A stretch of 64,000 nt of DNA from Myxococcales bacterium (GTDB lineage Bacteria; Myxococcota_A; Polyangia; Haliangiales; Haliangiaceae). Shown piece by piece: positions 63,753 to 63,990 of this stretch. Positions within the stretch are counted from its first letter, which is position 1. Every line of letters starts with the position of its first letter. Location: contig JAEUJY010000077.1 of NCBI GenBank assembly GCA_016794525.1, positions 173,091-237,090 on the forward strand, written 5' to 3'. Position numbers and translations under genes: made by a program. The notes beneath the pieces are model-generated. The model did no database searches, was not told the DNA's origin, and saw nothing but the letters and a program-made list of their open reading frames with translations.

Positions 63753-63990
63753 CCGCGATCGCGATTGCCCACGCGGGGCGCCGCCCAGGCCCGCCGCGCG
63801 ATCTCCCACGTGGGACGCCGGCCGCGCGATCTCCCACGTGGGACGCCGCCTGGGCCGGCCGCGCGATCTTCCACGTGGGACGCCGCCTGCCGGTCCCGCG
63901 ATCTCCCACGTGGGACGCCGCCTGCCGGTCCCGCGATCTCCCACGTGGGACGCCGGCGCGACCGTCGCGCGATCTCCCACGTGGGACGCC
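63753..63990. repeat. Tandem array of a 24-bp palindrome-containing repeat: at least six good copies and one degenerate copy, running to the window edge.
   Basis: Copies of CGCGATCTCCCACGTGGGACGCCG begin at about 63795, 63823, 63860, 63896, 63931 and 63967, giving periods of 28-37 bp with spacers of 4-13 bp. Each copy contains the perfect palindrome TCCCACGTGGGA. Confidence 0.6.

Follow-up and report, generated by a model that had tools for sequence, protein, structure and literature searches.

The tandem repeats at the right edge of the window (the whole 64,000-nucleotide stretch of DNA analysed here) belong to a dispersed family of non-coding arrays, which is present at no fewer than 22 loci, holds its loci while gaining and losing units, and has a constrained dyad at the core of its unit. 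The arrays might be platforms with many sites for a dimeric protein, ParB or a ParB-family paralogue being the most plausible candidate, and be resized by slippage. This reading is tentative, with a probability of about 0.4.

The array in the window occupies 63763-63991 and is made up of seven units of GATCTCCCACGTGGGACGCCG, six good and one degenerate, that all point the same way. The features are as follows.

63380 to 63720, minus strand: small conserved membrane-protein ORF with a GTG start 37 bp from the degenerate unit 1; context, not part of the repeat
63753 to 64000, plus strand: visible part of the whole array, one degenerate and six good units, its right end taken from the relatives L001 and L045
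63763 to 63783, plus strand: unit 1, degenerate, GATTGCCCACGCGGGGCGCCG; 17 of 21 positions match the consensus (4/21 mismatches) and the dyad is broken to CACGCG
63800 to 63820, plus strand: unit 2, exact match to the motif GATCTCCCACGTGGGACGCCG
63828 to 63848, plus strand: unit 3, exact, 28 bp from unit 2, the shortest spacing
63865 to 63885, plus strand: unit 4, GATCTTCCACGTGGGACGCCG, with a C-to-T change; its 16-mer TCTTCCACGTGGGACG matches the M. xanthus parS consensus at 14 of 16 positions
63900 to 63920, plus strand: unit 5, exact, followed by the spacer CCTGCCGGTCC
63935 to 63955, plus strand: unit 6, exact, preceded by the identical spacer CCTGCCGGTCC
63971 to 63991, plus strand: unit 7, exact, the last full unit inside the window

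Direct reading, Tandem Repeats Finder (63760-63996, period 35, 6.8 copies, score 259) and a repeat finder (seven copies, with start-to-start distances of 37, 28, 37, 35, 35 and 36 bp) agree on this array, as the original prediction of near-identical repeats with a 28-37 bp period would have it. The 21-mer GATCTCCCACGTGGGACGCCG occurs six times, at 63800, 63828, 63865, 63900, 63935 and 63971 (five times exactly and once with the single C-to-T change), where 0.01 occurrences are expected by chance, and at the core of the unit lies a perfect 12-bp palindrome, TCCCACGTGGGA. The spacers are 4-13 bp long, and the identical ones at units 5 and 6 indicate a recent duplication of a unit. The array was said to continue beyond the window edge. 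In L045, a third relative found via the FMN-reductase protein, the contig starts within the array, and its first 39 nt correspond to the last unit and spacer of the window with four mismatches; one further unit follows, then about 95 bp of non-repeat DNA and the start codon of the FMN-reductase gene. The window array probably extends about one unit past 64000, to judge from this relative.

In CRISPR arrays, repeats of about 23-50 bp alternate with unique spacers of similar length (about 26-72 bp). The near-identical, regularly spaced repeats of the window might recall such an array, and the several stop-free frames, with mechanical ORFs that span the array, might recall the coding repeat of a gene running past the window edge; both are hardly credible. 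The denial of a CRISPR in the original prediction was right, as the short spacers in the window are matched by spacers of 0-6 bp in most sister arrays, some of them duplicated. A coding repeat, which it had kept in view, is contradicted by the periods of 28, 35, 36 and 37 bp, which do not keep to multiples of three and are mixed in the sister arrays, so that no frame is kept. Moreover, nearly all arrays of the family lie outside ORFs supported by GC3, and the arrays of L001 and L045 stop in non-coding sequence, about 85-95 bp before the start codon of the FMN-reductase gene.

The window has about 75% G+C and genes of myxobacterial look. GATC is present in every good unit of its array, as had been noted, and it is also common at large, with 734 occurrences in the window where 143 are expected from base composition, a 5-fold excess; in the family it is missing from several arrays (L011, L019, L021, L026 and L036). 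Its loss from these arrays and its excess throughout the window mean that GATC is not a defining feature of the unit. In positions 1-63700, CGATCG occurs 237 times (20 expected), CACGTG occurs near expectation (15 and 20) and CCCGGG is 4-fold depleted (41 and 172). The skews of GATC, CGATCG and CCCGGG may reflect codon usage, or methylation or restriction pressure.

On its left, the array lies 37 bp upstream of the small minus-strand membrane-protein gene, in agreement with the predicted position. This ORF is taken as real from its 90% amino-acid identity to the counterpart in L001, with an in-frame indel, and it matches no Pfam family. The promoter or 5' leader of this gene must overlap or cross the array. 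The small ORF is adjoined by a string of GST, AHSA1/SRPBCC and ArsR-family genes on the minus strand (61819-63316), and the segment of AHSA1, ArsR and small ORF is kept in L001. The AHSA1 and ArsR ORFs share a few bases, suggesting an operon whose promoter would be in or beyond the repeat array. The ArsR/HTH_20 regulator is two genes from the array, 440 bp away. Scans for a sigma-70 promoter consensus and an intrinsic terminator found neither, and an Rfam scan of the whole window returned no family.

In Logan, the sole contig that encodes the neighbouring ArsR protein (L004) breaks within the array, and the right flank was therefore taken from L001 and L045. The orthologous locus in a Myxococcales MAG, L001, came from a scan of species-representative genomes. 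It is 93.8% identical to the window over 1.27 kb of the left flank. There AHSA1, ArsR and the small minus-strand membrane ORF precede an array of four 37-bp units, which about 85 bp of unique DNA separate from the plus-strand FMN-reductase gene. In the window and in L001 the array sits in a divergent promoter region.

The family set comprises 33 metagenome stretches and two MAG loci, the metagenome scan having demanded two adjacent units. All 33 stretches are same-orientation tandem arrays of 3-26 units, and grouping of orthologues leaves at least 22 distinct loci in related uncultured Myxococcota. The unit is about 21 bp long, reading GATC, the half-sites TCCCAC and GTGGGA, and CGCC, and the units are separated by short, freely evolving, GC-rich spacers. 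The periods peak at 24-26, 29 and 40-42 bp and follow no single helical phase; spacers in sister arrays are mostly 0-6 bp, and periods of 23, 24, 25, 26 and 29 bp are mixed in one array. With one vote per locus, the left flank GATCT is kept at A in 29/36, T in 23/36, C in 30/36 and T in 33/36. GATCT is absent from the search pattern yet common to most arrays, which points to descent from a common unit of about 21 bp.

For nearly all these arrays the closest gene end is typically 3-60 bp away. The flanking genes converge, diverge or run in the same direction, and many arrays fall between two convergent 3' ends. At another locus of the MAG that carries L001 (L003), about 21 units of the variant CCCACGTGGAACGCC..GATCT with a period of about 26 bp take up all of the DNA between the genes for a molybdopterin oxidoreductase and a secreted protein. 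The direct neighbours, as seen in the window, in L001 and at ten further loci, are unrelated housekeeping genes, and among the neighbours of arrays are HisRS, a histidine kinase, an FHA protein, OmpA, an S9 peptidase, a Mo-oxidoreductase, an FMN reductase and an ArsR regulator. Array orientation compared with local GC skew, a proxy for replication direction that is confounded by gene orientation and spacer composition, was negative at about 14 loci and positive at 7, which is not significant.

This distribution bears on the local operator, with a cognate regulator for the adjacent gene, that the original prediction had implied. A dedicated regulator, for example the nearby ArsR-family protein, might control the divergent membrane-protein and FMN-reductase genes through the array, given its divergent promoter position in the window and in L001, the regulator two genes off and the dyad form of CACGTG. 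However, the neighbours of the same unit at its 22 or more loci are unrelated and include no recurring regulator, and several arrays are flanked by two converging 3' ends, a setting that lacks a promoter. Further copies of the motif, for which a search had been proposed, do exist as arrays at those loci in relatives, but neither the unit nor CCCACGTGGRA is found outside the array in the 64-kb window, where no single operator-like copy exists. From 7 to at least 20 tightly packed, variably phased sites are unlike known ArsR operators. The operator reading is largely refuted by the distribution of the family and is very improbable.

The array has no blastn match in a collection of 72,556 plasmids or in a phage collection. 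A match in Cellulosimicrobium (L002) was rejected as a lone chance occurrence within a coding region, and five matches of the two-unit pattern in viral contigs all proved to be an unrelated 12-bp in-frame coding repeat. In these IMG/VR phage genes (L005:1-950 and L007:440-1088), about 80 copies of the 12-bp repeat GCCACGTGGGAC/GCCACGGAGGCC (GCC ACG TGG GAC) encode long runs of the tetrapeptides A-T-W-D/A-T-E-A, and the string CACGTGGGACGCC is common to them and the array by coincidence. Three arrays from other metagenomes are more distantly related to the repeat: in L022:1676-1909 a perfect 22-bp palindrome, CGACGTCCCACGTGGGACGTCG, recurs every 42 bp; L019:1174-1720 has a 43-bp unit with a second palindrome, GTACCATTGGTAC, beside the CACGTG core; and L036:1-2030 is built of 41-42-bp units over about 2 kb. 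They suggest a wider superfamily of CCCACGTGGGACG-centred arrays. In the literature, no description was found of the motif, of REP-like or minisatellite families in Myxococcota, or of parS-like tandem repeats. The family is apparently undescribed, and the kinds of element concerned, interspersed VNTR-type repeats and arrays of parS/ParB-family sites, are known.

The arrays hold orthologous positions through 6-15% divergence of the flanks, while copy number, period, and flank and spacer sequence change. Short-read contigs often break in the arrays (they start or stop within them in L004, L013, L014, L018, L025, L035, L041, L042 and L045), so copy numbers from short-read assemblies are unreliable. 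L003 has about 21 units and L037 about 14 with flanks that are 99.4% identical; the window has at least seven and L001 four at 93.8% identity; and L011, L017 and L023 have at least nine, three and about 15, with CCATC or CGATC flanks. In L003 and L040 the core alone is in common.

Such behaviour is what would be expected of a selfish or neutral minisatellite like MIRU-VNTR, in which a palindromic unit was scattered over many intergenic positions of an ancestral genome and mis-pairing has since driven changes of size, the arrays being slippage by-products without host function and the core being kept by the copying of intact units. The fast change of copy number between L003 and L037, the identical neighbouring spacers in the window, the assembly breaks (L004, L045 and many contig ends), the indifference to gene context and the lack of any associated gene all agree with it. 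So does the finding that FMN-reductase orthologues at the distant loci L043 and L046 (85% and 80% amino-acid identity, in other synteny) have no array. Neutral duplication, however, should spread variants evenly over the unit. Among 138 distinct variant units, the number of variants per position is 1.8 for CCACGTGG, compared with 9.6 for the remaining 12 positions of the 20-mer and 30 for the spacer; CCACGTGG is thus about 5-fold below the rest of the unit and about 17-fold below the spacers (chi-square p = 1.4e-11). This test was made within arrays and carries no position-specific ascertainment. In orthologous arrays of genomes 10-15% diverged, flanks and spacers have been replaced and the core is kept exactly, although the constancy of the core from one array to another is in part a product of the scan pattern, which demanded it. 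The central dyad CCACGTGG and the adjacent half-site bases are strongly constrained relative to flanks and spacers. Conservation of the core inside arrays could also come about with no advantage to the host, should intact palindromes promote their own duplication. The minisatellite explanation would also leave as coincidences the match to parS and a like-built array on L010 with 15/16 identity to it, both described below, and is considered unlikely.

If the constraint is functional, it might act on a structure or on a protein site. Units might work as REP/BIME-like structural elements, in which the cores of neighbouring units pair into GC-rich hairpins when transcribed or single-stranded, and these hairpins stop or pause transcription, shield mRNA 3' ends or bind gyrase. 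This would account for the intergenic placement, often at convergent gene ends and a few bp past stop codons. The whole window array folds better than shuffles (z = -4.9), the cores of separate units pairing with one another, a 20-bp hairpin arises on the L026 minus strand (z = -6.8), and the L022 palindrome extends over 22 bp. On the other hand, a single unit has an MFE of -8.4 kcal/mol and folds no better than shuffles (z = +0.24), without a notable hairpin, and two-unit segments of the window array are unremarkable relative to GC-matched shuffles (z = -1.5 to -1.8). All units are direct, as against the inverted pairs typical of REPINs and BIMEs, there is no U-tract terminator or Rfam family, and the constraint is focused on the central 8 bp, not even along the 12-bp stem.

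The sole symmetric pair that varies is at positions 4/13 of the 16-mer, with C/G in 218 units, C/A in 72, T/G in 11 and T/A in 2, in a comparison biased by the demand that seed units carry C at position 4. Whole arrays (L026, L030 and L039) hold the asymmetric state with its C.A mismatch, and in L003 and L026 the mismatch is on the strand that the flanking genes transcribe. The absence of compensatory, pairing-preserving covariation and the stability of asymmetric arrays fit half-site recognition better than a hairpin. The data thus favour half-site recognition by a dimeric protein, and the structural alternative is rather improbable. The central CACGTG had been predicted to be a site for a dimeric regulator, and in its variant counts this dyad behaves like a constrained protein-binding site.

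The core of the unit is close to the bacterial chromosome centromere site parS, a likeness absent from the original prediction; parS in general is a 16-bp palindrome, TGTTNCACGTGNAACA. In M. xanthus its consensus is TGTTCCACGTGGAACG (PMC3899335), and 22-24 copies of it lie upstream of parA at a distance of a few kb (PMC3899335, PMC3778016). The 16-mer of the window, TCTCCCACGTGGGACG, agrees with 13 of the 16 consensus positions, the asymmetric terminal G among them. The match rises to 14/16 in units of L003, L024, L026 and L030. In L010 (SXGT01114590.1, a 5-kb contig), a second array at 2780-2975, between a histidyl-tRNA synthetase gene and an unannotated gene, has five 36-bp units reading TGTTCCACGTGGGACG / CATGTTCCACGTGGGACGCGG with 15/16 identity to parS, and it lies 1.5 kb from a typical GATCTCCCACGTGGGACGCC array. 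L010 has no synteny with the Myxococcus parS region.

The window unit departs from parS at positions 2, 4 and 13, and the two family-variable positions (4 and 13) are exactly those that separate the family from parS. A half-site double mutant, TGCCCCACGTGGAACG, is still bound by M. xanthus ParB, with an affinity reduced about 10-fold (Harms et al., PMC3778016). The mismatches at positions 2, 4 and 13 would probably cost well over 10-fold in affinity for canonical ParB, and accepted Myxococcus parS sites have 0-1 mismatches, rarely 2. The 13/16 match could be a coincidence, whose rough chance after multiple comparisons is a few tenths.

As a positive control, a Myxococcus parAB locus (L047, CP183923) was analysed; the ParB search gave Myxococcaceae and Archangiaceae only. 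About 27 parS sites are found in a 9-kb stretch of this locus. Part of the cluster is an 82-bp direct repeat of 10.5 copies (2284-3176), and the sites that follow it, at intervals of about 80 bp, have kept their cores while their spacers diverged. This validated centromere is thus also a degenerate tandem array, with a signature like that of the present family and a longer period. The region upstream of parA (L047:1-9183) has no called genes and no GC3-supported ORF, its parS sites form two blocks of opposite orientation that meet near 3630, and a separate 90-bp repeat of 3.4 copies at 5086-5440 is without parS.

A ParB query, verified against PDB 6sdk, found no homologue in the 64-kb window or in 345 kb of array flanks (best tblastn E = 3.9), and annotation of neighbours found no par or rep genes beside any array. 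The arrays accordingly differ from a plasmid centromere or iteron, which has its own par or rep genes on a mobile replicon. The window contains a ParA/MinD-family ATPase at 15233-16048, with KGGVGKTT and DLDPQG motifs and matches to Pfam AAA_31/CbiA/ParA; its neighbours (14194-16586) are a DUF4388 response regulator before it and a 194-aa protein without a Pfam family after it. As a partner of the array it was rejected, being an orphan without ParB, 48 kb from the array, and it was treated as unlinked.

In the favoured explanation, in which arrays are binding platforms, a dimeric helix-turn-helix protein would recognise the constrained dyad, and each array would concentrate that candidate protein at intergenic positions. 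The 13-15/16 identity of the 16-mer to the parS consensus makes ParB, bound weakly, or a diverged paralogue the most plausible ligand; the case of a paralogue would be analogous to the Noc/NBS, KorB/OB, VirB/virS and Pseudomonas half-parS sites. Replication slippage or unequal recombination between near-identical units would change the number of units, which in turn would tune occupancy. The outcome would be local nucleoprotein complexes for chromosome organisation or insulation, not regulation of one gene. True parS sites are normally restricted to the origin-proximal region. Against a centromere role, the arrays are found on many contigs, at 22 or more separate loci with unrelated neighbours, and without the nearby parAB genes that are typical of origin-proximal parS. 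A more specific scenario, possible but doubtful, is that in a lineage of uncultured Myxococcota parS-like, centromere-derived arrays spread over a large chromosome as dispersed platforms of ParB or a diverged ParB-family CTPase, serving a chromosome-wide, independently evolved nucleoid organiser like Noc or KorB, or a poly-centromeric handling of the chromosome, with occupancy tuned by the turnover of units.

If ParB or a paralogue binds them, these would be the first parS-type sites amplified into dozens of dispersed tandem arrays. This would bear on the organisation of very large bacterial chromosomes, on the divergence of specificity in the ParB family (compare the switch from parS to NBS) and on the birth of centromeres through tandem duplication. 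Even without host function, the arrays provide a high-resolution set of VNTR markers for abundant wastewater Myxococcota. They are also a recurrent cause of assembly breaks and a source of false CRISPR and 'hypothetical protein' calls.

Several known systems resemble the family in part. MIRU-VNTR loci of mycobacteria are likewise tandem repeats of 20-100 bp at many intergenic loci with strain-variable copy number, although they have no sequence relationship to the family. MIRUs are not known to have a conserved palindromic core under differential constraint, and some of them overlap small ORFs. As direct repeats of 10-100 bp at multiple intergenic loci with polymorphic copy number, the arrays have the properties of VNTR-type minisatellites. 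REP, BIME and REPIN elements are, like the family, dispersed, intergenic and palindromic, often at the 3' ends of genes, with many copies in each genome. However, REPs are stem-loops, occur singly or in inverted pairs and are linked to RAYT transposases, whereas the units of the family are all direct, fold singly no better than chance and stably keep the pairing-breaking C.A state. The family thus has the dispersed intergenic copies of such elements and lacks their stem-loop per unit and their inverted orientation.

The sopC site of the F plasmid consists of tandem 43-bp direct repeats, each with an inverted-repeat site for the ParB-family protein SopB. It resembles the family in its head-to-tail, palindrome-centred direct repeats of one orientation; it is a single locus beside sopAB on a plasmid, whereas the family occupies many chromosomal loci without adjacent partition genes. 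sopC is mentioned in PMC3597684.

The parS cluster of M. xanthus is like the family in its CCACGTGG centre and ...ACG right end (13-15/16 identity), and in its tandem-duplicated copies with conserved cores and diverged spacers in non-coding DNA. It is one cluster, 4-8 kb from parAB in a gene-free region with a spacing of about 80 bp, whereas the family forms short arrays (100-600 bp) packed at 24-37 bp in at least 22 ordinary intergenic regions with no parB nearby. In sequence, the family has C/G for T/A at positions 4/13 and usually C for G at position 2. The parS-related motifs of Noc (NBS), KorB (OB), VirB (virS) and the half-parS sites of P. aeruginosa are spread round the replicon, and these ParB-family sites serve nucleoid organisation or long-range regulation, not segregation (PMC5961200, PMC10419367, PMC10770331). 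They differ from the present family in that they are single copies, whereas the family forms tandem arrays.
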